NCBI GenBank assembly: GCA_023266875.1
Contig: JAHFOJ010000004.1
Location: 1 to 60,484 of the forward strand
Length of the DNA stretch: 60,484 nucleotides
Direction: 5' to 3'
Source of the DNA: Candidatus Giovannonibacteria bacterium
GTDB lineage: Bacteria; Patescibacteriota; Minisyncoccia; JACPKW01; UBA11713
The translations under genes were made by a program, and so were the position numbers. Numbering within the stretch: the first letter of the stretch is position 1; each line of letters opens with the position of its first letter. This document shows positions 16,028 through 27,329 of this stretch, one piece after another. Under the pieces are notes generated by a model. The model searched no databases and was not told where the DNA came from. It saw nothing but the letters and a program-made list of their open reading frames with translations.

Positions 16028-17338
16028 TTAGATATATTTATCATTATTAATGAGATGTGACATCAGATAAATAGTTTTCTTTCTTGGGCGGAGGAATGGA
16101 TACCTATGAAGTTCATTTTCGAAATTCCAGCGCATTTCCTCAACAAGATCTAAGTTTTCAAACGCGATATTATTTTTTTCAGAGGGGTCATTCTCTAAAT
16201 CATAAAGTTCGTCCACGAAAAACTTTCGAGTATGATTTATAAACTTATATTTTTTGTTTTGTATACAAAATCCTTCCCGCTCTGTTTCGGCCAATGCCGA
16301 CAAAATTAGATTATTTTCTAATGTATTTAAAAGAGATGTGCCATGTAGCTGTTCATCAAGTTTTATTCCGATTGCATCCAGTATAGTAGGCATAATATCA
16401 ACGCTCCGCACTATTTGATTAGCGACTTTATGATTGAATCCAGGGATATAAATTATTAATGGCACGTGAAGGAGCTCGTTATATAGTTGTTTGTGGCCAA
16501 ATATCTTGTGCTCTAAAAATTCTTGGCCATGATCAGAGGTGAATATTATTATCGTTTTTTCCAGCAAACCCAACTTAGATAAATAATCTAATAATCTCGC
16601 AAAGAAATCGTCAACATATTTTATTGCGCCATCATATATAGCTTTATAGTACTCGATATCTTCATAATTTTTAGATCTTCGCATTGCGCTGATAAAAGAT
16701 CTATAAGATTCTACACGGATGTTTTGTAACCACTTTATTTTTTGTGGGAACCCATCGGTAATTTTAAAAGGCCCATCATATCCATCGCTGAAGAGGTTTA
16801 TGTAAGGCCAAGGTGAGTCCCATGGGTTATGTACCACGTAAGTATGAAAAAAAACGAAGAAACTTTCATTTTTAGCTTGTTCTAAGAAATATAAAATTTC
16901 TTTTTCTGGTATCGAGCCCAGGCCTCTATAATTTCCTGCATCATATGGATTGGTTGAATAGTAATCAAAGCCCCTCGAAAAACCAAATACTGGTTCTAGT
17001 TGGGCGCCGTCTGTAAAGCCAGCAGTTCGGTAATCATTTTTTTTTAAAATTTCTGCAAAAGTAGTGATGTTCTCGTTAAGCACATAAACCTTACCTCCAT
17101 TTTCAGCGTCGGCTATGCTCAATATTCCATGATATGTGGGATAACGGGCAGTCATTATGGACATAAATGATGGGGCAGTCTTAGGAGCCTGAGAATAGCA
17201 ATTTTTGAATAAAATGCTTTTTTTCGCAAAATCGTCTATTGCCGGAGAGGTTGGACGTTTGTATCCATAACACCCCAAATGATCAGCGCGGAGAGTATCT
17301 ATACCTATTAATATGACATTGTAAGGATTTTTTATCAT
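16028..17338 (-). CDS. Sulfatase-fold (alkaline phosphatase superfamily) enzyme with Thr at the nucleophile position
   Basis: IGIDTLRADHLGCYGY metal-binding N-terminus. The canonical C/S-x-P-x-R position reads T-A-P-S-F. No signal peptide or TM helix. Confidence 0.8.
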   Translation of the reverse strand: MIKNPYNVILIGIDTLRADHLGCYGYKRPTSPAIDDFAKKSILFKNCYSQAPKTAPSFMSIMTARYPTYHGILSIADAENGGKVYVLNENITTFAEILKKNDYRTAGFTDGAQLEPVFGFSRGFDYYSTNPYDAGNYRGLGSIPEKEILYFLEQAKNESFFVFFHTYVVHNPWDSPWPYINLFSDGYDGPFKITDGFPQKIKWLQNIRVESYRSFISAMRRSKNYEDIEYYKAIYDGAIKYVDDFFARLLDYLSKLGLLEKTIIIFTSDHGQEFLEHKIFGHKQLYNELLHVPLIIYIPGFNHKVANQIVRSVDIMPTILDAIGIKLDEQLHGTSLLNTLENNLILSALAETEREGFCIQNKKYKFINHTRKFFVDELYDLENDPSEKNNIAFENLDLVEEMRWNFENELHRYPFLRPRKKTIYLMSHLINNDKYI

Positions 17339-17397
17339 GCTATGCTTATTTTGTGTATAATATCATTTTTAAATTATTTTAGAATAACTAAATCCAA

Positions 17398-18168
17398 ATG
17401 GCAGAAAAATCAAGATATCTATCGAATAGTGAAAGGACGGCGCTAATAACCGGCGGCATCACAGGGATAGGTCGAGCTATTACATCACGTTTGGCAAGGG
17501 ATGGTTTTTCTTTAGCAATAAATTATAAAGGTTCGGAAAAAAATAGTTTTATTAGATCACTTAGAAAAGAATTGGAATTTCATAATGTAAAATATGTATT
17601 GATTAAGGCAGATATCTCAAAAATATTAGAGGTTGAGAGAATGATTAAAATTGTAGAAAAAAACTTTGGCAAGGTAGACGCGTTAATCAACAACGCGGGA
17701 ATAAATCAGAATCAAAATTTTAGTAATTTGGATTTTAGTAATTTTGATAAAATACTAGATGTAAATTTGCGCGGTGCTGTGATGATCACTAAATATACAC
17801 TCCCATTATTTGAAAAAGCTCTCTTGCCAAGGATAATTTTTATTTCTTCAGTAAATGCATTTGTTGGCTCTGCTGCCAGAGTAGCCTACACGGTTTCTAA
17901 AAGCGGGCTTTTGGGCTTGACCAAAGCTTTGGCATTAGAGCTCGCCCCAAAAGTTCTCGTAAATTCGATAGTCCCAGGTTATATCGATACTGACATGTTT
18001 AGAAGATTTAAATCAGAAAATCCATACACGAAAATTAAAAGGATCCCATTAAAAAGGATTGGTCTGCCGGAAGATGTTGCTGGTGCTGCGTCTTTTTTGT
18101 GTTCCCCGGACAGCTCGTATATTACGGGTCAATGTATACACGTTAATGGAGGTTTATTTTTATCGTAA
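17398..18168 (+). CDS. Short-chain dehydrogenase/reductase (FabG-like)
   Basis: TGGITGIGRA cofactor motif, NNAG and the catalytic YTVSK. Confidence 0.85.
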   Translation: MAEKSRYLSNSERTALITGGITGIGRAITSRLARDGFSLAINYKGSEKNSFIRSLRKELEFHNVKYVLIKADISKILEVERMIKIVEKNFGKVDALINNAGINQNQNFSNLDFSNFDKILDVNLRGAVMITKYTLPLFEKALLPRIIFISSVNAFVGSAARVAYTVSKSGLLGLTKALALELAPKVLVNSIVPGYIDTDMFRRFKSENPYTKIKRIPLKRIGLPEDVAGAASFLCSPDSSYITGQCIHVNGGLFLS

Positions 18169-18863
18169 TGACGAATTCTAAATTAGTGGCAGCGGTTATA
18201 TTGGCTGGCGGGCAAAGCGTACGGTTTGGGAAATCTTTTAAACAATTTGCCAAAATAAACGGGAAGCCGCTCATTTCATATTCTTTGGGTGTGTTTATTA
18301 AATGTAAATTTATACAGAATATAATAATTATTGCGCCAAAGAGAAGAATAGCTTATGCGAATAGATTAGTACGGCGTCTCAATGATTCTAGGATCCAAGT
18401 AGTCGAGGGTGGCGAATATCGCAGGCAGTCTGCGTTAAAAGCATTGATTTTTTTAAAAAGAATTTCTCCAGATTATGTAATTTTTCATGATGCTGCGAGG
18501 CCATTTATCAGTCAAGAAATGGTTAGTGGCGTTTTAGCGGAGGCTTCACGAACTGGCGGCGCAGTTATTGCTACGAAGGCTACTGATCTGGTTCTAAAGG
18601 CAGACAATCATAAATTTATAAAAAGTGTTTCTCAAAAAGAAAAAATCTTTTTTGGACACACCCCACAATGTTTTCAGTTCGATTTAATTTTAGCGGCGCA
18701 TTTAAAGTGCGCGAAAATATTACAGGATGCGGATAATATAGAATTAGTATTAAATACAAACAAACGCGCGCGAATAAACGTGGTTGAATATTCGCCTGCT
18801 GGTAGCCCGAAGCTTACCTATAAACAAGACTTGATGGCGATGAGGCTATTTCTAAGGAATTGA
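18168..18863 (+). CDS. IspD/TarI-family sugar-/alditol-phosphate cytidylyltransferase
   Basis: AVILAGGQSVRFG...K N-terminal motif of the IspD/TarI family. Its start overlaps the SDR stop by 1 nt. Confidence 0.8.
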   Translation: MTNSKLVAAVILAGGQSVRFGKSFKQFAKINGKPLISYSLGVFIKCKFIQNIIIIAPKRRIAYANRLVRRLNDSRIQVVEGGEYRRQSALKALIFLKRISPDYVIFHDAARPFISQEMVSGVLAEASRTGGAVIATKATDLVLKADNHKFIKSVSQKEKIFFGHTPQCFQFDLILAAHLKCAKILQDADNIELVLNTNKRARINVVEYSPAGSPKLTYKQDLMAMRLFLRN

Positions 18864-18866
18864 TTT

Positions 18867-20210
18867 ATGAAATCTAGGGTGATAGATAATCCAAACCCAA
18901 ATGCAACCCTCGGTTTTGTATTGTTTTATCCCTTTCATTTCTATGTTTATAAAAATGTTTATAAGAATATAAAATATAAATCAGAATTCATAGTTGATTT
19001 GGGACGTTTTTATCCGTTTGCTGATCAGCAAGTGAATCTGCTCACTAATATTATTAAATTGCTTAACAAGCATGAGGCGAATTACAGGATTATCTACTAT
19101 GAAGACTATACAAAAGAAGATTATTTAAAGATGTTTTTTTCAAAGTATTATGGGCTCGTTTCGCTTATGGAGCGCGGTTGTTTGTTGCTCTCATGTAATA
19201 GAAACAAAAGGAAAATACATATGAATTATGGGGCTGGTAAAGAGTTGACGATGTTAAGACCTAGTATGCGCTTTTATGATTTAGCTTTGGCTTACGGCAA
19301 ACGAGCTCATAAACATCTTTCTTTATACACGTATTGTAAGATCGTGGGTAATCCGAAATTTGATGATTGGTTTGCAAACGAGCTGGATAAAGAATTATCA
19401 GCTGATCTGACTTCAAAAATTGAGAGTAACAAAAAAACACTTCTTTACTTACCTACTCACGGCGACCTTACATCGATGGACGCTTTAGCGCTGCCGTTGC
19501 AGCACCTTTCTAAAATTTATAATGTTGTTGTTAAATTGCATTATTATAATGTTTACGAAGAACGTGAGCGGGTTAGCAAGTTTGAGGGTAATAATATAAT
19601 TTTATATGATGATTCAGCTGATTTGTTGCCTCTTTTAAAAATTGCTGACGTCGTTATTTGTGATAATTCAAGCGCTATATTTGATGCGATATTAGCTGAT
19701 AAGCCAGTTGTCGTGGCAGATTTACTCTCTCAAGACTACATAGATTTTGAACATAAGAAACCCGCGGCACTTCGAGGGCGCATATCTACCGCATTGACTT
19801 ACTCCGGGAGCATAGAACAATTGATCAAAAAGAATAAATTGGTGGTTACCGTTTCATCGCCATCGCAGCTTGCGGATGCAATAAAAATAGCTCTAGATGA
19901 CAAGGCGTTTTTTAAGGATGCGCGGGAAACACTAAGAAAAGAACTTTTTGCATTCAGAGATAAATATTGTGGCAAACGCGCAGCTTCGTCCATTGAGGAA
20001 TTAATGATTATGAAAAAAATGCGTCAAAAAACACCCCTCGCCCAGGCTCTTGACGCCGCCGAACAATTGCAAAAAAACAATTCGCAACACTTTATGCCAA
20101 TGTCGCAATGGCTACGAAGCGAAAACATTAAAATAAATAAAAAGATATATCTATTTGTTTTGAAAGTTCTCGAAGAAATATTTAATCGGAAGTTGTACAT
20201 AAAAAATTGA
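18867..20210 (+). CDS. CDP-glycerol/CDP-ribitol polyol-phosphate transferase (TagB/TagF/TarL family)
   Basis: C-terminal half resembles TagF-type catalytic domains (LLYLPTH...; VICDNSSAIFDAILADKPVV). Lies in an operon with the cytidylyltransferase. Confidence 0.7.
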   Translation: MKSRVIDNPNPNATLGFVLFYPFHFYVYKNVYKNIKYKSEFIVDLGRFYPFADQQVNLLTNIIKLLNKHEANYRIIYYEDYTKEDYLKMFFSKYYGLVSLMERGCLLLSCNRNKRKIHMNYGAGKELTMLRPSMRFYDLALAYGKRAHKHLSLYTYCKIVGNPKFDDWFANELDKELSADLTSKIESNKKTLLYLPTHGDLTSMDALALPLQHLSKIYNVVVKLHYYNVYEERERVSKFEGNNIILYDDSADLLPLLKIADVVICDNSSAIFDAILADKPVVVADLLSQDYIDFEHKKPAALRGRISTALTYSGSIEQLIKKNKLVVTVSSPSQLADAIKIALDDKAFFKDARETLRKELFAFRDKYCGKRAASSIEELMIMKKMRQKTPLAQALDAAEQLQKNNSQHFMPMSQWLRSENIKINKKIYLFVLKVLEEIFNRKLYIKN

Positions 20211-20253
20211 GCATTCGTCAGCTCTTTTTCCGACGCGCTTTCTATTTTGTTTT

Positions 20254-21396
20254 ATGATATATAACGAATCATTGACGAAATTTTTTTGTTTGATAAGCTT
20301 AATAAAAATGACTAATCAATTATTTCAGCCGAAAAGTCTTGTTTTGCAGTGGCATATAACCGAACGATGCAATTGGCGGTGCAAACATTGCTACCAAACT
20401 TCGTATACGACGCCGGAGATGGATTTGAAAATGATGGAAAATATATTGGCGCAATACGTCGGACTATTAAAAAAATGGAATATCCCGCGCCGGCATGCCA
20501 GAATTCAGATTACAGGAGGCGAACCTTTTGTGCGCCGCGACATTTTTCAATTTTTGGAGAAAGTTTATAAGTTATCCGACCATTTCCAATGGACACTTTT
20601 GTCTAACGGCTCTTTTTTGACAGAAGACAAGGTCAAACTGCTTAAATTATTCGGCATCCAATCATATCAGGTGAGCATGGAAGGATTGGAGAAGACTAAT
20701 GATGAGATCAGAGGAGAAGGCAGTTTCAAAAAAATTCTAAAAGCAATAGAACTTCTTGTTTGGGCGAAAATACCATCAAGGGTTTCCTTAACCTTAACCC
20801 GGAAAAACCTTCCGGAGATTAAAGGGTTGGCCGATCTTTTGGCTCCCTTGGGGGTGCGTGGCTTGGGAGTGAGAAGAATAGTTCCGTGGGGATCGGGAGC
20901 GGCTATGAAAGAATATGTTCTTGAGCCGCAGGAGCTGAGGGGGCTTTACCGAGAGATAGAAGAAATCAACCGAACCATGATCGCGAACGGGCACTCTTTA
21001 AAAGTAACCGGAGGGTGCGAAAACGGTATTTTTAATGATGAGATTTCTGGGGAAGGGCTGATGTCGCACGGAGTTTGCGGGGTGACCTACGGCAGAATAT
21101 TGATAGTATTGCCGAACGGAGATACATTGGCTTGTCGGAGACTGCCGATTATTCTTGGCAATCTTCACGAAAAATCGATGGAAGAAATTTATTATTCTCC
21201 GCTTTACGAAAGCTGGCGCCAAAAAGAAGATGTCCCTTCTGTCTGCCAAGCATGCCCAAGTTATCAGCATTGTTTCGGCGGAGCAAAATGCGTAACTTAC
21301 GGGATGACCGGCAAAACCGCTCCCGATGTCCAATGCTGGAAATTATTTAACAGCCTAGAAGAAGCCGCTCACAGAATTAAAAATGAATCCCGTTAG
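20254..21396 (+). CDS. Radical SAM enzyme with C-terminal SPASM domain (peptide-maturase-like)
   Basis: CNWRCKHC (CxxxCxxC) near the N-terminus. C-terminal CX14GX4C ... CQACPSYQHCFGGAKC ... C, a seven-Cys SPASM-type pattern. Alternative start ATG 20308. Confidence 0.85.
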   Translation: MIYNESLTKFFCLISLIKMTNQLFQPKSLVLQWHITERCNWRCKHCYQTSYTTPEMDLKMMENILAQYVGLLKKWNIPRRHARIQITGGEPFVRRDIFQFLEKVYKLSDHFQWTLLSNGSFLTEDKVKLLKLFGIQSYQVSMEGLEKTNDEIRGEGSFKKILKAIELLVWAKIPSRVSLTLTRKNLPEIKGLADLLAPLGVRGLGVRRIVPWGSGAAMKEYVLEPQELRGLYREIEEINRTMIANGHSLKVTGGCENGIFNDEISGEGLMSHGVCGVTYGRILIVLPNGDTLACRRLPIILGNLHEKSMEEIYYSPLYESWRQKEDVPSVCQACPSYQHCFGGAKCVTYGMTGKTAPDVQCWKLFNSLEEAAHRIKNESR

Positions 21397-21505
21397 AGGC
21401 CGCGATCGCCTGTAAACGCATTTATTATTAATAATAAAAAGATGATTAACTTTATAAATAACACATGCAAATTGCGGCTATATCGCGATCTGCCTCTAAC
21501 GGGAT
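21387..21505. repeat. Inverted-repeat element, copy 2 (ATCCCGTTAGAGGC ... GCCTCTAACGGGAT)
   Basis: Perfect 14-bp arms (21387-21400 / 21492-21505) with further imperfect GATCGC pairing and an AT-rich interior. The left arm contains the radical SAM stop codon. The right arm contains ATG 21504. Confidence 0.7.
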
Positions 21506-22718
21506 GAAAGTTTTATTTCTAACTAAATATCCGCCAATAGAAGGCGGCGTTTCCGCGCAGAATTATTGGCTGGCAAGGGCGTTGGGAGAAAAGGATGTTC
21601 AAATTTCCGTCGTGACGAACGCTTTGTTGGTGGAAGATGCTTACCGTGAAAATATAAATTGGCTGGATGGCGAAGTTTCAAGCAAATTTCAGCCCAAAAA
21701 TGTTTTTTTGTATTCTTTAAAAAATCAAACACCAACGCATATACCTTATTCTCCGGCGTATCTTTCTCGCCTGGTGAATTTGGGCCTAAAAGCGATAGCC
21801 GAACGAGGCGCGGATGCCGTATACGCTCATTATTTGGAGCCCTACGCCTCCGCGGGATTTATTTTAAAAAAAATAACCGGCCTTCCTTTGGTTATCAAGC
21901 ACGCAGGGTCTGATATTTGGAGGCTTTTGCGCAGTGAAGATTTTAAATATTTTTTAGGATGGGTTATAAAGTCCGCGGATGCACTGTTAACTTCAGAATC
22001 GCTTTCTCCCATGTTTAAGGAATTGGGGGTGCCGCAAAAAAAAATTAAATATATCCGGCGCGCCGTAAACCCAGCTCAATTTGCTTCAAAGGGCGCTCGT
22101 TTTGATTTTTCAAAAGCGGGCTTTGCGATCCCTCCCAATGTTCCGCTTTTGACTTACATCGGCAAGGCCAATTTAAACAAAGGGCTTTTTGAATTAATCG
22201 AGGCTCTATCCGGGATGAGTTCAGATTTCAGATTTTTATTTGTTTCTAACGGGCCGAAATTTGAAGAACTCAAGGCCAGAATAAATTCACATTCTAACAT
22301 TAAAGATAAGTTTGTTTATTTGGGGTTTGTGCCTCCATGGGAAATTCCCAATATCTTGCGCGCGACTGATTTTTTGTTCCAACTGGAAAACGATTTCCCC
22401 GTTCCAATTCACGGGCCGGTTCAGCCGTCTGAAGCAATCGCTTGCGGCACCCCCGTGATTTTAAGCGAGGAAATATTTTCCAAACTTAGGCCTCATTTTC
22501 CGAGCACGAGCGGCAAATTCATCGTGGTTAAGGACCCAAGAGATCCGCAAGCGCTTCGGGAAGTTTTGAAAAAAAGCTTAAATGCGATCGAGGCGGCGAA
22601 AAGTGATGCGGGCGAGATAAGAGAGGAGTTTTTGTCACGCAATCATTGGGATCAATATGTTTCAGATTATATCGAACTTTTCGATTCTGTTGCCGGACGG
22701 CGGTTCAATATTTTTTGA
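21465..22718 (+). CDS. Glycosyltransferase family 4-like
   Basis: MKVLFLTKYPPIEGGVS N-terminus typical of GT4 (probable true start ATG 21504). GT-B C-terminal domain with an E..AcG.PVI-like segment. Confidence 0.8.
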   Translation: MQIAAISRSASNGMKVLFLTKYPPIEGGVSAQNYWLARALGEKDVQISVVTNALLVEDAYRENINWLDGEVSSKFQPKNVFLYSLKNQTPTHIPYSPAYLSRLVNLGLKAIAERGADAVYAHYLEPYASAGFILKKITGLPLVIKHAGSDIWRLLRSEDFKYFLGWVIKSADALLTSESLSPMFKELGVPQKKIKYIRRAVNPAQFASKGARFDFSKAGFAIPPNVPLLTYIGKANLNKGLFELIEALSGMSSDFRFLFVSNGPKFEELKARINSHSNIKDKFVYLGFVPPWEIPNILRATDFLFQLENDFPVPIHGPVQPSEAIACGTPVILSEEIFSKLRPHFPSTSGKFIVVKDPRDPQALREVLKKSLNAIEAAKSDAGEIREEFLSRNHWDQYVSDYIELFDSVAGRRFNIF

Positions 22719-23545
22719 GCCCTTTCGATATCTGTCATTATCATTTCTTCAAAATTTTCTTTGAAATTATCATCGCGCTCTATAATAACGGTTTTAATAT
22801 CGCATTTTCCGGCAACATACTCAAGCAGCTGCCAAATTCCTTCGTTAATCCCATTTAATTCCTCCGAATGAGTATCATAAAACATATTATTATGCCGGTG
22901 GATTCTGCCTCCGGCGAGATGAATTTGCACGACATTTTCCAGCGGGAACCTTTCAAGCAAACGCAATGGATTTTCTTTGCGATTATGCGAATTAATATGT
23001 ATATTCGCCAAATCAAGTAAAAGGCCGCATCCGGTTCGTCTGCAAACCTCTTTAATAAATTCCGGTTCCTCGAAATCTCCCCCGGGTATTGTAAAAAATG
23101 AAGTGATATTTTCAAGCACCAATGGAAGTCTTAAAAAATTTTGCGCTTTATTTATTTTACTCACTACGATATCAAGAGTTTCTTTGGTAAACCAAAGAGG
23201 CGAGAGATGGCCAATGCTAACGCCGTCAACCTCAGTCAGGGCAAAATGGTCGCTATAATACGGCGCTTTGATGTAATGGCAAAAGCCCTCTATTTTTTTA
23301 AGATAATCAAAATTAATATTTTCGGCGGCGCCAATTGAAAGGTTGAGTCCGTGCGGGATTAGCGGAAGTGAATCGCCGATTTTTTTCAAAAGTTTGTTTT
23401 CGATTAAATTCGTGTTGATATAATGCTCTGAAGTAACTTCAAGCACATCGATTTCGTTTTTACGCTCCACAATTTCATCAACCAACTCCGCTCGCAAGCC
23501 AAGCCCGACCCCGAAGAAGGGAATTTTTTTAAGCTCGTAATTCAT
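22667..23545 (-). CDS. DUF692 / MbnB-TglH-like multinuclear non-heme iron oxidase (MNIO) family protein
   Basis: TIM-barrel DUF692 pattern: GVGLGLR, EVTSEHY, HGLNLSIG, YSDHFA and LVLENITSF. ATG 23545 overlaps the partner stop as ATGA. The ORF track offers a TTG at 23569. Confidence 0.8.
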   Translation of the reverse strand: MNYELKKIPFFGVGLGLRAELVDEIVERKNEIDVLEVTSEHYINTNLIENKLLKKIGDSLPLIPHGLNLSIGAAENINFDYLKKIEGFCHYIKAPYYSDHFALTEVDGVSIGHLSPLWFTKETLDIVVSKINKAQNFLRLPLVLENITSFFTIPGGDFEEPEFIKEVCRRTGCGLLLDLANIHINSHNRKENPLRLLERFPLENVVQIHLAGGRIHRHNNMFYDTHSEELNGINEGIWQLLEYVAGKCDIKTVIIERDDNFKENFEEMIMTDIERAQKILNRRPATESKSSI

Positions 23546-24021
23546 AATATTTTTAAATTCTTTTCCCAAAGTGTTTCTTTATTGATAAGCAAAGAAATGT
23601 TAAGAAAATCTGAAATGCCGGCGTTTTGGGCGGCAAGATAGCTTTTGAATAAATCGCTTAACATAAAGCCTTTGTCCGGAAGAGTTTTTAAGATGTTAAA
23701 AGCTCCGGTGCCGATTTCAACTTTTTTTATTTCGTCCTGATTTTTAAAAAATAACATTGGCCCGTTTATGTAGGCGGATGACGCCGCGACAATGTTTGGA
23801 TTTTTAGCTAATATTTTTTTTATCATCTTGTTTTTCTTATTGATCAGCGATTCCGCGAAAAGTTTCAGCGGCGTTTTAGGAAGGGCTGAAATCGCCTTTT
23901 TTTCGCGATCGTCCAAATTATATTTCTTATAAAAGACCTCTTTGTCGGATAAAAAGTCTGTGCGAGTTGATTTGTCTGTATAAATATCAACTAGCGCTTT
24001 TTGAAAATTTATTAAAGCCAT
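23542..24021 (-). CDS. Hypothetical protein, candidate MNIO partner (position and size analogous to MbnC/TglI/DUF2063-type partners)
   Basis: Translationally coupled to the DUF692 gene (ATGA). Start ATG 24021 lies 6 nt after a TATAAT. The function rests on genomic context only. Confidence 0.55.
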   Translation of the reverse strand: MALINFQKALVDIYTDKSTRTDFLSDKEVFYKKYNLDDREKKAISALPKTPLKLFAESLINKKNKMIKKILAKNPNIVAASSAYINGPMLFFKNQDEIKKVEIGTGAFNILKTLPDKGFMLSDLFKSYLAAQNAGISDFLNISLLINKETLWEKNLKIL

Positions 24022-24027
24022 TAGGAA

Positions 24028-24033
24028 ATTATA
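24028..24033 (-). promoter_or_regulatory. -10 box TATAAT (minus strand) 6 nt upstream of ATG 24021
   Basis: The minus strand reads TGTT-TATAAT-TTCCTA-ATG. Confidence 0.45.
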
Positions 24034-24082
24034 AACATTCAATGTCTTGCAAGCAAGAAGTAGAAACCGTAGTATTAGTAGT

Positions 24083-24376
24083 ATGAGGGGCAAGGCAGAA
24101 AAGCTGAATAGCATAAGAAAGACGCTGTTTAGGGCTGTCTCCGGTTTACTGGTGGTGGCGGCCGTATCAATATTGAGATTTGTTTATTCGGTTGGCGCGG
24201 GCGATTACCAAAACAAAGTTAGCCGGCACAATAATGCCGTAGATAAGGCCTTGAGCATTAATATCGCTAGCGCCGATGTGCCTGCCCCCGAAAGTTGCGG
24301 TGGCGGCTGTATGGCTTCTTGCGCAGGACCTAGTTGCGCTTCTTGTTCGGGCTGTAATAGTTGCGGTGGCTATTGA
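24083..24376 (+). CDS. Putative RiPP precursor: Sec-signal-like N-terminus plus a Cys-rich C-terminal core
   Basis: 98 aa from the only upstream ATG. It has a basic n-region (MRGKAEKLNSIRK), a hydrophobic h-region (LFRAVSGLLVVAAVSIL) and a C-terminus SCGGGCMASCAGPSCASCSGCNSCGGY with 7 Cys. It is divergent from the MNIO operon. Confidence 0.55.
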   Translation: MRGKAEKLNSIRKTLFRAVSGLLVVAAVSILRFVYSVGAGDYQNKVSRHNNAVDKALSINIASADVPAPESCGGGCMASCAGPSCASCSGCNSCGGY

Positions 24377-25674: not shown

Positions 25675-25938
25675 ATGAAAACCAATGAAAGAGGCAAAAA
25701 TAACCAAATTAAATTCCGGCAGTCGCTTTTTTGGGATGTGGACCCCAAGACAATTGATCCAAAAAAGAACGCGCCATATGTGATAGAACGAATACTGGAT
25801 TTCGGTAAAGATAATGAAGTAAAGTGGTTATGGAATAAATATCAAAGAAGAACGATTCACAATGTTGTTAAAAAACGACGCGGCTTAAACAAACGAACCC
25901 GTGCTTTATGGATGCTCCTTACCGCTCCAGAGAAATAG
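25675..25938 (+). CDS. Small conserved-looking protein, putative antitoxin partner of the AbiEii-like gene
   Basis: 87 aa. Overlaps the downstream nucleotidyltransferase gene by 31 nt. The function is inferred from the pairing only. Confidence 0.5.
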   Translation: MKTNERGKNNQIKFRQSLFWDVDPKTIDPKKNAPYVIERILDFGKDNEVKWLWNKYQRRTIHNVVKKRRGLNKRTRALWMLLTAPEK

Positions 25939-26585
25939 TCTGGCGCACAGATATTTTGCCGGAAAATGCCCAGAGGGCGCTTAATTACTTGAGCGGTCAG
26001 AAATGGCTTAAGCACAGTTCTTGGTATATGGCCGGCGGTACCGCGCTCGCGCTTCAGATTGGGCACCGAACTTCCCAGGACTTGGATTTTTTTAATCCTA
26101 GGAAGTTTTCTTCTCAAATATTGATTAAGAAGTTTTCCTCCGTGGATTGGAAAACGACGATTTTTCAAGAGGGAACAATTTACGGCGGACTATTAGGTAC
26201 GAAAGTCAGCTTTATATTCTATCCTTTTTTTCTTCCAAAAGAACAGCAGCTTTTTTATGGCTCGGTTCGCGTTTTGCATGAGCGGGATATCGCGGTTATG
26301 AAAATTTTAGCAATAAGTCAGCGCGGAACCAAAAGAGATTTTGTCGATCTTTATTGGTATTGCCAAAACCGCGAACCCCTGCTTCAAATCGCGCAAAGAC
26401 TTGAGGCGCAGTATCCGAACACAAAGCATAACTATCACCATATTATTAAAAGCATGGCTTATTTCGAGGACGCGGAAGCTGATCCAATGCCTCGGATATT
26501 TTTTAAGGCGTCGTGGCCCGACATAAAAAAGTTTTTCGAGCGGGAAGTCCCGCGCGTTACCCGCGAATTTTTAGGATTGCGCTGA
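25908..26585 (+). CDS. AbiEii/AbiGii-family nucleotidyltransferase toxin (type IV TA)
   Basis: YMAGGTALALQIGHRTSQDLDFF motif characteristic of the AbiEii (DUF1814) family. Confidence 0.7.
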   Translation: MDAPYRSREIVWRTDILPENAQRALNYLSGQKWLKHSSWYMAGGTALALQIGHRTSQDLDFFNPRKFSSQILIKKFSSVDWKTTIFQEGTIYGGLLGTKVSFIFYPFFLPKEQQLFYGSVRVLHERDIAVMKILAISQRGTKRDFVDLYWYCQNREPLLQIAQRLEAQYPNTKHNYHHIIKSMAYFEDAEADPMPRIFFKASWPDIKKFFEREVPRVTREFLGLR

Positions 26586-26588
26586 ATC

Positions 26589-27329
26589 ATGAAAAACCGG
26601 CATATTTGGATTTCAGCTACCGCCATTCTTTTTTTTGTTTTTTTTATTTTACAGAGTCAAAGAGAAAAGCCCGAAGCTAAAGACGCGAAAGCGTATTTGG
26701 CATTGGGGAATTCTTATTTTAACGGATCAGCCGGATACAATGTGGCGAAAGCGGAGGAAGCGTTTAAAAAAGCCGTTCTGGCCGATCCTAAAATCACTTA
26801 CGGCCACTATCAATTGGCGCGAGTTTATTTTATAGAGAAAAAAAATTCAGAGGCGCTTTCGGCAATAAATAAGGAGCTTGAAATAAATCCGGAAAATCTG
26901 CGCTCGCTTTATGTCCGTGGCCTGATCAAGGCGGAAATCGGAGATTTGTCGGGAGCAGAAGATGATTTTAGGCGATTTGCCCAATGGATGCCGAAAGAAT
27001 GGTCCGGATGGAACGATCTCTCGTGGATTTTAATGAAAGAGACAAAATATAAAGAAGCGGAAGCTGAAGTTAGAAGCGCGTTTGCAAACGCGATAGGCGC
27101 GGATACAAATCCGTGGCTTTGGAATCATTTGGGGCTGGCTTTGCTGAACCAAAAAAAATACGGCGAAGCCGAAAAAGTATTTCTTCGCGCAAAAGAGCTG
27201 GTTGGGAAATTAACGGTTAAAGAATGGCAAGCGGCGTATCCCGGGAACAACCATAAATCCGCCGCGGATGGGCTCGGCGCTTTCGGAAGGGCTGTGGATT
27301 TTAATCTGGAGCAAAGCAGGTTAAAATAG
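26589..27329 (+). CDS. Tetratricopeptide-repeat protein, membrane-anchored
   Basis: N-terminal TM helix and several TPR-like 34-aa repeats (A..Y..LG..Y...G.Y..A...F..A). Confidence 0.7.
   Translation: MKNRHIWISATAILFFVFFILQSQREKPEAKDAKAYLALGNSYFNGSAGYNVAKAEEAFKKAVLADPKITYGHYQLARVYFIEKKNSEALSAINKELEINPENLRSLYVRGLIKAEIGDLSGAEDDFRRFAQWMPKEWSGWNDLSWILMKETKYKEAEAEVRSAFANAIGADTNPWLWNHLGLALLNQKKYGEAEKVFLRAKELVGKLTVKEWQAAYPGNNHKSAADGLGAFGRAVDFNLEQSRLK

Follow-up and report, generated by a model that had tools for sequence, protein, structure and literature searches.

The gene cluster described here lies in a stretch of 60,484 nucleotides (the window) that makes up positions 1 to 60,484, forward strand, of contig JAHFOJ010000004.1 in assembly GCA_023266875.1, assigned to Candidatus Giovannonibacteria bacterium. 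Its adjacent genes encode a radical S-adenosylmethionine enzyme with a SPASM domain (rSAM), a family 4 glycosyltransferase (GT4), an oxidative enzyme of the multinuclear nonheme iron-dependent type (MNIO, DUF692), a small protein encoded directly ahead of the MNIO (the partner), and a Cys-rich peptide. A preliminary description, made from the sequence alone, had read these five genes as a hybrid cluster for a peptide that is made by the ribosome and modified after translation (RiPP) in a reduced genome of the candidate phyla radiation (CPR) type. We found all five open reading frames (ORFs) at the positions given there, and the CPR-like nature of the genome was borne out by RpoC, which is 55 to 61% identical to its counterparts in CPR (Patescibacteria) metagenome-assembled genomes (MAGs). 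The window is chromosomal, encoding RpoB/C, FtsK, and CTP synthase. The five-gene cluster stood as far as the genes are concerned but not in its extent, since a protein designated X and a membrane-anchored TPR protein also belong to it (Table 1). The GT4 and MNIO genes are convergent, and their 3' ends overlap by 52 bp (22667 to 22718). A promoter and terminator scan gave counts close to those of shuffled sequence.

Table 1. Genes of the cluster and associated features, with coordinates in the window
Feature	Coordinates	Strand	Basis and remarks
Radical SAM/SPASM enzyme	20254..21396	+	Pfam domains, Cys motifs; probable true start 20308, 362 aa
GT4 glycosyltransferase	21465..22718	+	Pfam GT4 domains; probable start 21504
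MNIO (DUF692), 292 aa	22667..23545	-	PF05114, Fe ligands
MNIO partner, 159 aa	23542..24021	-	ATGA coupling, synteny
Predicted precursor peptide, 97 aa	24083..24376 (ORF opens TTG 24047)	+	Translation, alignment, conserved design
Protein X, 367 aa	24416..25519	+	Syntenic homologues directly 3' of precursor
Membrane-anchored TPR protein	26589..27329	+	TPR Pfam matches, cluster homologues
BNR/CARDB/PKD surface protein, 1220 aa	27335..30997	+	Pfam matches; cluster association tentative

The DUF692 assignment held in profile hidden Markov model (HMM) searches. PF05114 (MbnB_TglH_ChrH) matched with 248.7 bits against a gathering threshold of 25, residues 12 to 280 of the protein covering positions 1 to 262 of the 263 in the profile. 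The iron site of VcMbnB consists of H55, H91, E135, D165, N168, H194, D209, H211, and E238, with Asp240 as the catalytic residue (PMC8888699). All these ligands aligned to identical residues in the window MNIO (H65, H100, E145, D178, N181, H209, D224, H226, and E256, with D258 as the catalytic Asp), and the nine ligands and the catalytic Asp were invariant in 39 members of the clade. Among curated families, the best matches were BufB (NF050167; 213.4 bits, cut-off 310) and HvfB (NF003818; 184.2 bits, cut-off 360); ApyH, ChrH, and MbnB came next. Since neither the BufB nor the HvfB cut-off was reached, the MNIO lies outside the named MNIO subfamilies. About 50 relatives share 45 to 66% identity with it, after which identity drops to 40% or less.

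The stop codon of the partner gene overlaps the start codon of the MNIO gene, as had been described (plus-strand TCAT at 23542 to 23545, ATGA on the minus strand), and partner homologues occupy the same position ahead of the MNIO in the CPR loci compared below. The suggestion that the partner is a DUF2063/MbnC-like protein was not sustained by any such HMM match, and the protein fell into no Pfam or NCBIfam family. When partner and X profiles were run against the PDB, nothing above noise emerged (LigA/SonA-like, E of ca. 0.3; a designed helical repeat, E of 0.05), and word-indexed homology searches with both returned the query alone. The N-terminal helical domain of the partner, of ca. 70 aa, is common to the 250- to 300-aa partners encoded in non-CPR MNIO-GT4 loci, the C termini of which match PqqD, NGO1945_C, and winged helix-turn-helix models. 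This N-terminal domain (23812 to 24021) also gave weak but repeated matches to LigA-domain models, to the “Frankia_peptide” (PF14407) RiPP leader model, and to SonA in the PDB, with E values of 0.02 to 0.4 (the best PF14407 match, 1.2e-5, was in non-CPR members), so that MNIO partners and LigA-type leader domains could have a common fold.

The rSAM showed Radical_SAM (PF04055; 67.9 bits) and SPASM (PF13186; 36.2 bits) domains, both above gathering thresholds. The CxxxCxxC motif reported earlier is CNWRCKHC (residues 39 to 46), and the complete seven-Cys SPASM set is accompanied by one more Cys, giving eight in the C-terminal part (residues 255, 275, 294, 331, 334, 340, 346, and 361). Alignment with relatives indicates a start at the ATG at 20308 and a length of 362 aa. 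The best NCBIfam matches were SbtM (TIGR04082; 148.4 bits, cut-off 350), covering model positions 189 to 503 of 516 with the N-terminal region of ca. 190 aa absent, and the ACGX rSAM (TIGR04340; 147.7 bits, cut-off 400). Scores for ranthipeptide and sactipeptide families were also below their cut-offs (PapB, 81 bits against 340; StsB, 64.7 against 625; AlbA, 57.4 against 850). The relatives in rSAM-type GT4 loci (see below) scored 154 to 302 bits with the ACGX rSAM model, always with SbtM second and always below the cut-off. The nearest solved structures were SkfB, PqqE, and CteB, and no selenocysteine codon context was seen for the gene. In CPR loci, rSAM homologues with 50 to 69% identity adjoin GT4 genes and/or genes for precursors with the AxAD motif described below. 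We also considered an anaerobic sulfatase maturase acting on a neighboring sulfatase/phosphodiesterase-superfamily gene (16028 to 17338, opposite strand), and rejected it because TIGR03942 gave 59.1 bits against 349 and because the rSAM relatives adjoin genes for Cys-repeat peptides, not sulfatases. A different use of the rSAM lineage was seen in a Saccharibacteria locus (L091, 6640 to 13668; related loci carry L numbers throughout), in which a homologue 48% identical to the window enzyme stands in a run of SPASM-like ORFs with no GT4 gene nearby; these neighbors were judged radical SAM/SPASM proteins by their Cys motifs only, without HMM confirmation.

The GT4 assignment likewise held, with PF00534 (48.3 bits), PF13439 (34.7), PF13579 (30.9), and PF13692 (36.6) all above gathering thresholds. 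Alignment places the likely start at 21504 (MKVLFLTKYPPIEGG), and the N-terminal motif reads KYPPIEGGVS. Non-CPR relatives are longer (600 to 770 aa), and their C-terminal extension matched PqqD, a peptide-binding domain of the RiPP recognition element (RRE) type, in all three proteins tested.

The Cys-rich ORF is real, and its tail, SCGGGCMASCAGPSCASCSGCNSCGGY, is as first quoted; its length, given as 98 aa, is 97 aa counted from the ATG. The peptide has a basic N terminus, a hydrophobic segment at residues 18 to 34 (17 residues, Kyte-Doolittle value of 2.27), and an ASAD junction at residues 62 to 65, after which come all seven Cys residues, in the core VPAPESCGGGCMASCAGPSCASCSGCNSCGGY. The same Cys-rich architecture was found beside the enzymes in relatives. 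It has three parts: a basic N terminus with a 17-residue hydrophobic segment, a linker of ca. 25 to 45 residues followed by the AxAD junction, and a Gly/Ser/Cys-rich core. This design recurred in L004, L006, L007, L008 (twice), L009, L010/L171, L170, L328, L090, and L336. An alignment of nine CPR precursors showed the junction variants ASAD, AYAD, ANAD, AHAD, and VHAD, with A and D invariant. Identity across the nine loci was 25 to 32%, and the cores varied, with 2 to 12 Cys; that of L006 (...DCGCGHEGY) has merely two. The hydrophobic segment was present in all eight CPR precursors measured (Kyte-Doolittle values of 1.9 to 3.0) and absent from 11 precursors of the leader type. Thus, as is general for RiPPs, a small precursor gene is kept beside the enzymes, with a conserved N-terminal part and a variable core. 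The window precursor had no Pfam or NCBIfam match and no DUF2282, BUF_6/12Cys, or EGKCG-repeat signature; TIGR04222 did not match it even at an E value of ≤10, it has a single hydrophobic segment, and TIGR04341 (ACGX repeat) matched none of the precursors.

Directly 3' of the precursor gene stands the gene for X, a protein with an N-terminal transmembrane (TM) helix, an all-alpha (TPR-like) body, and a conserved C-terminal ...LGWKI. Its homologues, membrane-anchored helical proteins of 350 to 390 aa, come after the precursor in most loci (directly 3' of it in L004, L006, L007, L008 [twice], and L009; the matches in L010 and L328 were weaker). An exhaustive phmmer search gathered the family into 584 representative clusters, almost all of them of full length. 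Neither Pfam nor the PDB contained a relative, and scanning GTDB with an alignment of X gave no matches. Homologues of the TPR protein (30 to 58% identity) are encoded inside the cluster in eight CPR loci, in shuffled gene order, including L001/2, L004, L006, L007, L009, L010, and L090, and the protein is probably an accessory component. Between the X and TPR genes of the window (25675 to 26585, plus strand), a DUF6922 ORF (87 aa, 60.5 bits) overlaps a gene for an AbiEii-family nucleotidyltransferase toxin (225 aa). From their sequences, the two look like an inserted type IV toxin-antitoxin pair; in relatives with both X and TPR genes, these are closer together, and no such pair lies between them. 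The surface protein encoded after the TPR gene belongs to the cluster only tentatively. Large Cys-rich secreted or surface proteins are encoded directly after the TPR gene in L001 (1091 to 2863), L009 (5941 to 7260), L007 (4847 to 6091), and L090 (13002 to 14153) as well, and the window and L001 proteins carry a “...PACGSS...” motif ca. 25 to 55 residues from the N terminus.

We compared the CPR contexts of seven MNIO relatives from public assemblies and of two Candidatus Kaiserbacteria genomes from GTDB. In 10 out of 10 CPR MNIO loci, the partner and MNIO genes, in this order, converge on a GT4 gene whose product is 44 to 55% identical to that of the window. Among these 10 loci, the rSAM/SPASM gene (52 to 53% identical) was found, besides the window, only in L001-3 and L006. 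Scanning metagenomes yielded two more loci, L329 and L328, the latter with every component. The four lineages represented by the window, L001-3/L329, L006, and L328, all of the CPR type, were the only ones found with both enzymes. In L006, genes for a YcaO protein, a nitroreductase, the precursor, X, the rSAM, and the GT4 follow one another on one strand and converge with the partner-MNIO pair, an order that ties the rSAM and the GT4 to the peptide. Other loci had the rSAM, paired with a GT4 of the window's subfamily, without the MNIO. In L090 (Patescibacteria), the rSAM and GT4 genes are followed at some distance by a precursor gene (...VKIASADIPSSGGSCSSCNSCGG..., with IASADIP...), and no MNIO is present; in L092 (Woesearchaeota), a relative of the rSAM is paired with a GT4, again with no MNIO; and L095 (Omnitrophota) combines a 50-aa precursor (...SCSSCSTCSSCACGS) with two PqqD-like proteins, an rSAM, and a GT4. 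An rSAM 69% identical to that of the window accompanies a ...SASADVP... precursor in L336. The occurrence of the same genes and peptide design in ca. 10 divergent lineages is more than chance would produce. Gene order, by contrast, varies among relatives, and the arrangement first put forward as distinctive, with the partner before the MNIO and the precursor divergent, is not a defining trait; the constant of the system is a GT4 together with an MNIO and/or an rSAM.

Some features of these loci stand apart from this comparison. The antisense overlap of the MNIO and GT4 3' ends is unusually persistent, being kept at 12 to 81 bp in six divergent lineages (L001, 4522 to 4533; L004, 6887 to 6900; L006, 2950 to 3030; L007, 8842 to 8864; L008, 8836 to 8882; and the window), and may couple the expression of both genes. 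L008 has two precursor-X pairs. In L006 (6825 to 8662) and L008 (359 to 4244), genes for a YcaO protein and a SagB-like nitroreductase are added to the cluster and, judging from these families, would form a third Cys-heterocyclizing module.

In order to place the cluster in a wider context, we took a census of loci anchored on the GT4 by patterns (KYPPIEGG and others), which returned at least 80 loci in each of two collections (GTDB and metagenomes); the counts given here are among the loci listed. Neighbors within 7 kb were detected by BLASTP with window and locus queries (E value of ≤1e-5), and a few weak rSAM calls, such as those in L191 and L243, may represent SPASM enzymes of different families. 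A first tally of 80 GTDB loci gave 40 with an MNIO, 26 with the rSAM lineage, none with both, and 14 with neither; for 80 metagenome loci, the corresponding figures were 2, 38, 2, and 38. A recount gave 40/25/0/13 (MNIO/rSAM/both/neither) for 78 GTDB loci and 2/37/2/35 for 76 metagenome loci, the small differences arising because some GT4 genes touch the contig end. The metagenome loci with neither enzyme were mostly on short contigs. When only the 45 GTDB loci with a flank of at least 5 kb on both sides were counted, 27 had an MNIO, 15 an rSAM, none both, and 3 neither; that is, one or the other enzyme stood within 7 kb of the GT4 in 42 out of 45.

The two types of loci differed in their hosts. 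MNIO-type loci were found chiefly in aerobic bacterial phyla, and rSAM-type loci chiefly in archaea (Methanoperedens, Bathyarchaeia, Thermoplasmatota, and Woesearchaeota), Omnitrophota, Chlorobium, and Planctomycetota. MNIOs with 36 to 42% identity to that of the window, from Acidobacteriota, Actinomycetota, Ktedonobacteria, Anaerolineae, and one gammaproteobacterial MAG, adjoin a homologue of the GT4 (E values mostly 1e-44 to 1e-61). Small ORFs with cores of C(S/G)GC repeats lie beside GT4 genes of both types. The non-CPR precursors of MNIO-GT4 loci are ordinary leader peptides of the double-Gly, Nif11, or “LEFELEELE...IAP” type (the Nif11-family leader of L020 exceeded the NCBIfam cut-off, and another leader type was only weakly Amm_Lyn-like), and the leaders of rSAM-type loci have a common K-Y-x-(Y/F)-W motif. 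The core of L012 (...SCSGCNSCSGCSGTGCAGCG...GSY) is strikingly similar to that of the window.

The census also brought up other neighbors of the GT4. Asparagine-synthase-like (PF00733) genes were near it in 23 of the 80 GTDB loci, the strongest matches (31 to 44% identity) being in MNIO-type loci (L004, 1634 to 3298; L012, 11860 to 13659; L013, 7399 to 9144 and 12898 to 16173; L017, 2898 to 4649); none lies near the window cluster. L012 and L199 have a TauD-family dioxygenase as well. In L333 (3148 to 3501) and L334 (8307 to 8684), which encode an rSAM 47% identical to that of the window, an ORF of ca. 120 aa consists of (S/T/N)CHS repeats (...HTSCHTSCHSSCHSSCHSSCHSNCHSS...); by its composition, it looks like a His/Cys-repeat variant of the core, apparently suited to metal binding.

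Directly observed, then, are the gene content, the enzyme families, the conserved metal ligands of the MNIO, and the linkage, kept in different lineages, of precursor, X, partner-MNIO, GT4, and rSAM. We consider it probable that the locus encodes a RiPP-type maturation system, the substrate of which would be the Gly/Ser/Cys-rich C-terminal core of a peptide with a secretory signal or signal anchor. The bioinformatic part of the hybrid-cluster reading in the preliminary description stands with it: the DUF692 and SPASM models match, the iron ligands are present, and the Cys-rich ORF is conserved beside the enzymes in relatives. In the mechanism that we propose, by analogy with characterized systems, the MNIO, docked on the peptide by the partner, would oxidize Cys residues in the C-x(1-3)-C repeats in the cytoplasm to heterocycles of the 5-thiooxazole type, a reaction requiring O2. 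The rSAM/SPASM enzyme would act without O2 on Cys residues of the same core, producing either this heterocycle again, in the manner of SbtM, or thioether cross-links, and the GT4 would glycosylate the peptide at Ser, Cys, Tyr, or a modified residue. The hydrophobic N terminus would carry the product across or into the membrane, with AxAD as a recognition or possible cleavage junction. Outside the cell, the TM-anchored X and the TPR protein would handle the product, which, after the example of bufferins, may be a surface-exposed or secreted metal (copper) binder rich in thiols and heterocycles.

Several points weigh against this reading. Every curated equivalog cut-off was missed (BufB, 213/310; HvfB, 184/360; SbtM, 148/350; ACGX, 148/400). 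Neither the window partner nor any CPR partner matched PF09836 (DUF2063), and when the partner was compared by hhalign with an alignment of 11 members, 8 of them matching DUF2063, the probability was 6.4%. The rSAM has no N-terminal RRE domain, and there is no PqqD-like gene in the window. The AxAD motif lies 25 to 45 residues past the hydrophobic segment, an unusual placement for a signal peptidase I site. The solved relatives nearest to the GT4 are small-molecule enzymes of the BshA type (32 bits only), and the rSAM and GT4 genes come after a run of TagF, IspD, and SDR (short-chain dehydrogenase/reductase) genes on the same strand. Finally, single-sequence AlphaFold2 models of the partner (predicted local distance difference test score [pLDDT] of 49) and of X (all-helical, pLDDT of 50) were unusable.

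Four other explanations were weighed. The “precursor” might be a small protein that stays anchored in the membrane while its Cys-rich tail, outside the cytoplasm, is modified there, as with oxazolin/HvfA or the TIGR04222 membrane proteins; there would be no released product, and X and the TPR protein would be its membrane partners. Taken as a replacement for the maturation system, we find this possible but somewhat doubtful; as a membrane-tethered variant of it, it is quite possible. The hydrophobic N-terminal segment of all eight CPR precursors would serve such an anchor, X and the TPR protein have N-terminal TM segments too, the cluster encodes neither a protease nor an exporter of its own, and MNIO-associated membrane proteins with Ser/Gly/Cys tails and short non-DUF2063 partners are known (Antoine et al. 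2025, PMC12452194). However, TIGR04222 found no match, the conserved AxAD resembles a processing or recognition site, and homologous cores elsewhere stand behind classical cleavable leaders of the double-Gly or Nif11 kind.

It is also conceivable, though we would not favor it, that the two enzymes have complementary chemistries, the rSAM making thioethers of the sactipeptide or ranthipeptide type (SCIFF-like) and the MNIO making heterocycles on other Cys residues. That both enzymes were retained in four lineages would fit, and the nearest solved structures of the rSAM include the thioether-forming SkfB and CteB along with PqqE, with PapB, StsB, and AlbA among the family matches. Against this, the ACGX rSAM and SbtM models consistently outscored the thioether families (148 bits against 81 for PapB in the window; up to 302 for ACGX in relatives), and the distribution among full-flank reference loci (27 MNIO, 15 rSAM, 0 both), with cores of one kind in both types, fits interchangeable roles better.

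A third explanation, juxtaposition of separate systems, concerns the genes upstream of the rSAM. These form a teichoic-acid-like run on the plus strand, with an SDR (17398 to 18168), an IspD-like cytidylyltransferase (18168 to 18863), and a TagF-like gene (18867 to 20210) of the CDP-glycerol glycerophosphotransferase type; the sulfatase-superfamily gene mentioned above lies beyond them. The rSAM and GT4 might serve this envelope glycopolymer operon, leaving only the MNIO and its partner to act on the peptide: the five genes from 17398 to 22718 share one strand with short gaps, Pfam assigns teichoic-acid-type genes, a TagF-like gene stands at the edge of the L006 cluster too, and the solved relatives of the GT4 are small-molecule GlcNAc transferases. 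We nevertheless judge this very unlikely. Apart from that L006 gene, the run (16028 to 20210 with the sulfatase gene) is not kept with the cluster in other loci, and the other GT4/MNIO/rSAM loci lack homologues of SDR, IspD, and TagF; in Patescibacteria, Woesearchaeota, and Omnitrophota, the rSAM-GT4 pair is found again beside PqqD-like proteins and Cys-repeat precursors but no teichoic-acid genes; the GT4 adjoins the MNIO in 10 out of 10 CPR loci; and in L006 the rSAM-GT4 pair shares its strand with the precursor and X genes, which immediately precede it. That the Cys-rich ORF is spurious, arising in a GC-rich repeat while the true MNIO substrate lies elsewhere, is almost certainly wrong: the core is of low complexity, automatic gene calling in L004 settled on a different frame, and no curated family matches, but the architecture is kept in the Cys-encoding frame at 25 to 32% identity in nine loci, with A and D invariant, and the gene is usually followed by X while its position relative to the enzymes differs among loci.

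Returning to the maturation system, its distribution around the GT4 suggests a further step. The main argument is the either/or occurrence of MNIO and rSAM around one GT4 and one type of core, because of which we regard the two enzymes as presumably equivalent in role, alternative modules around a single GT4 hub. MNIOs of the BufB/HvfB type turn Cys into 5-thiooxazoles, and the product of SbtM has likewise been reported to contain thiooxazole (PMC13097082, PMC12538549); this suggests an O2-dependent and an O2-independent route to one modification. The window, with both enzymes, fits life at fluctuating oxygen. We put forward only tentatively the more ambitious proposal that these loci represent an undescribed RiPP superfamily defined by a GT4 of the KYPPIEGGVS type and C(S/G)GC cores. 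Under this proposal, aerobic bacteria would use the O2-dependent MNIO, and archaea, Omnitrophota, and other anaerobes the O2-sensitive rSAM, the two interchangeably making the same heterocycle, on which the GT4 would then act. In CPR bacteria, the leader would have become a membrane anchor, with X and the TPR protein as dedicated extracytoplasmic partners, and the product might be a glycosylated, thiooxazole-rich, metal-binding surface peptide of an episymbiont.

The RiPP pathways of Patescibacteria are essentially uncharacterized, and the conservation of a compact cluster in reduced genomes implies an important function, e.g., surface copper or redox handling. The GT4-centered family spans CPR, DPANN and other archaea, Omnitrophota, Acidobacteriota, Actinomycetota, and Myxococcota and is apparently undescribed. 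If MNIO and rSAM indeed provide an aerobic and an anaerobic path to one modification of one type of substrate, the family would offer a natural experiment in convergent enzymology, and their equivalence would give the orphan “ACGX” rSAM family its first function. Glycosylation of a ribosomal peptide by a GT4, possibly at a modified Cys, would be new chemistry. The idea is directly testable, since there are cultivable carriers, among them Nocardioides aequoreus, Actinoplanes sandaracinus, Corallococcus exercitus, Nocardia brasiliensis, and Ktedonosporobacter rubrisoli.

Among known systems, the locus most likely belongs to the RiPPs with MNIO and rSAM/SPASM maturases; we did not find the combination of both enzymes with a GT4 described. 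In agreement with the preliminary description, which knew of no such family, no Cys-repeat RiPP with MNIO plus GT4 or rSAM plus GT4 was found in the literature, subscription titles being outside the scope of the search. On the rSAM side, the ACGX system (TIGR04340 rSAM/SPASM with TIGR04341) is the top family for the enzymes of GT4 loci (148 to 302 bits), and its substrates, too, are short, with Cys at every three to four residues between small residues. In contrast to that system, the scores stay under the 400-bit cut-off, there is no TIGR04341 precursor, and the GT4 is apparently not part of the family description; the ACGX system has a bioinformatic definition only, and we found no paper on it. 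SbtM/SbtMa, the rSAM thio(seleno)oxazole maturase, was the second- or equal-best rSAM family, and its product is reported to carry a heterocycle of the BufB type, but the window enzyme lacks the N-terminal region of ca. 190 aa and scores below 350 bits. Resemblance to heterocycloanthracin and other thiazole/oxazole-modified microcins lies in the repetitive Cys/Gly/Ser cores, in weak TIGR03601 matches, and in the YcaO and nitroreductase genes of L006 and L008; the window, unlike them, has no YcaO or dehydrogenase gene and an unrelated leader. Glycocins (S/O-glycosylated, of the SunS/ThuS type) are likewise ribosomal peptides with Cys/Ser-rich acceptor regions, served by a glycosyltransferase of their own. 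These glycosyltransferases, however, belong to GT2 while the window enzyme is a GT4; neither an MNIO nor an rSAM takes part, and the glycocin cores are helical and stapled by disulfides.

On the MNIO side, a 2025 survey described precursors with signal peptides, short non-DUF2063 partners termed “PME-type 2,” and TIGR04222 membrane proteins with Cys/Gly/Ser tails (PMC12452194); its text and supplements mention no glycosyltransferase, radical SAM, or Asn-synthase neighbor. The locus resembles the clusters with TIGR04222 and PME-type 2 proteins in having a putatively membrane-anchored substrate with an unstructured, Ser/Gly/Cys-rich C-terminal tail, a short, apparently alpha-helical non-DUF2063 partner, and an MNIO near the bufferin enzymes, and it differs from them in its single hydrophobic segment and in the lack of a TIGR04222 match. 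The partner would fit only the structurally defined PME-type 2 idea. We rejected an equivalence with the published TIGR04222 clusters, as the actinobacterial MNIO-GT4 loci use small leader peptides. The closest likeness in the oxidative enzyme itself is to bufferins (BufABC) and to oxazolin/fontiphorin (HvfABC and FonABC): BufB and HvfB are the nearest MNIO families, the iron ligands are complete, a partner gene is adjacent, and the window precursor is Cys-rich with an N-terminal hydrophobic segment of the export type, as most MNIO precursors are (PMC12452194). Unlike in those systems, where the partner is a DUF2063 protein of ca. 250 aa with a full RRE, the window partner is a 159-aa protein outside DUF2063, encoded upstream of the MNIO; the cluster has no DoxX gene, and a GT4, an rSAM/SPASM enzyme, X, and a TPR protein are added to it.

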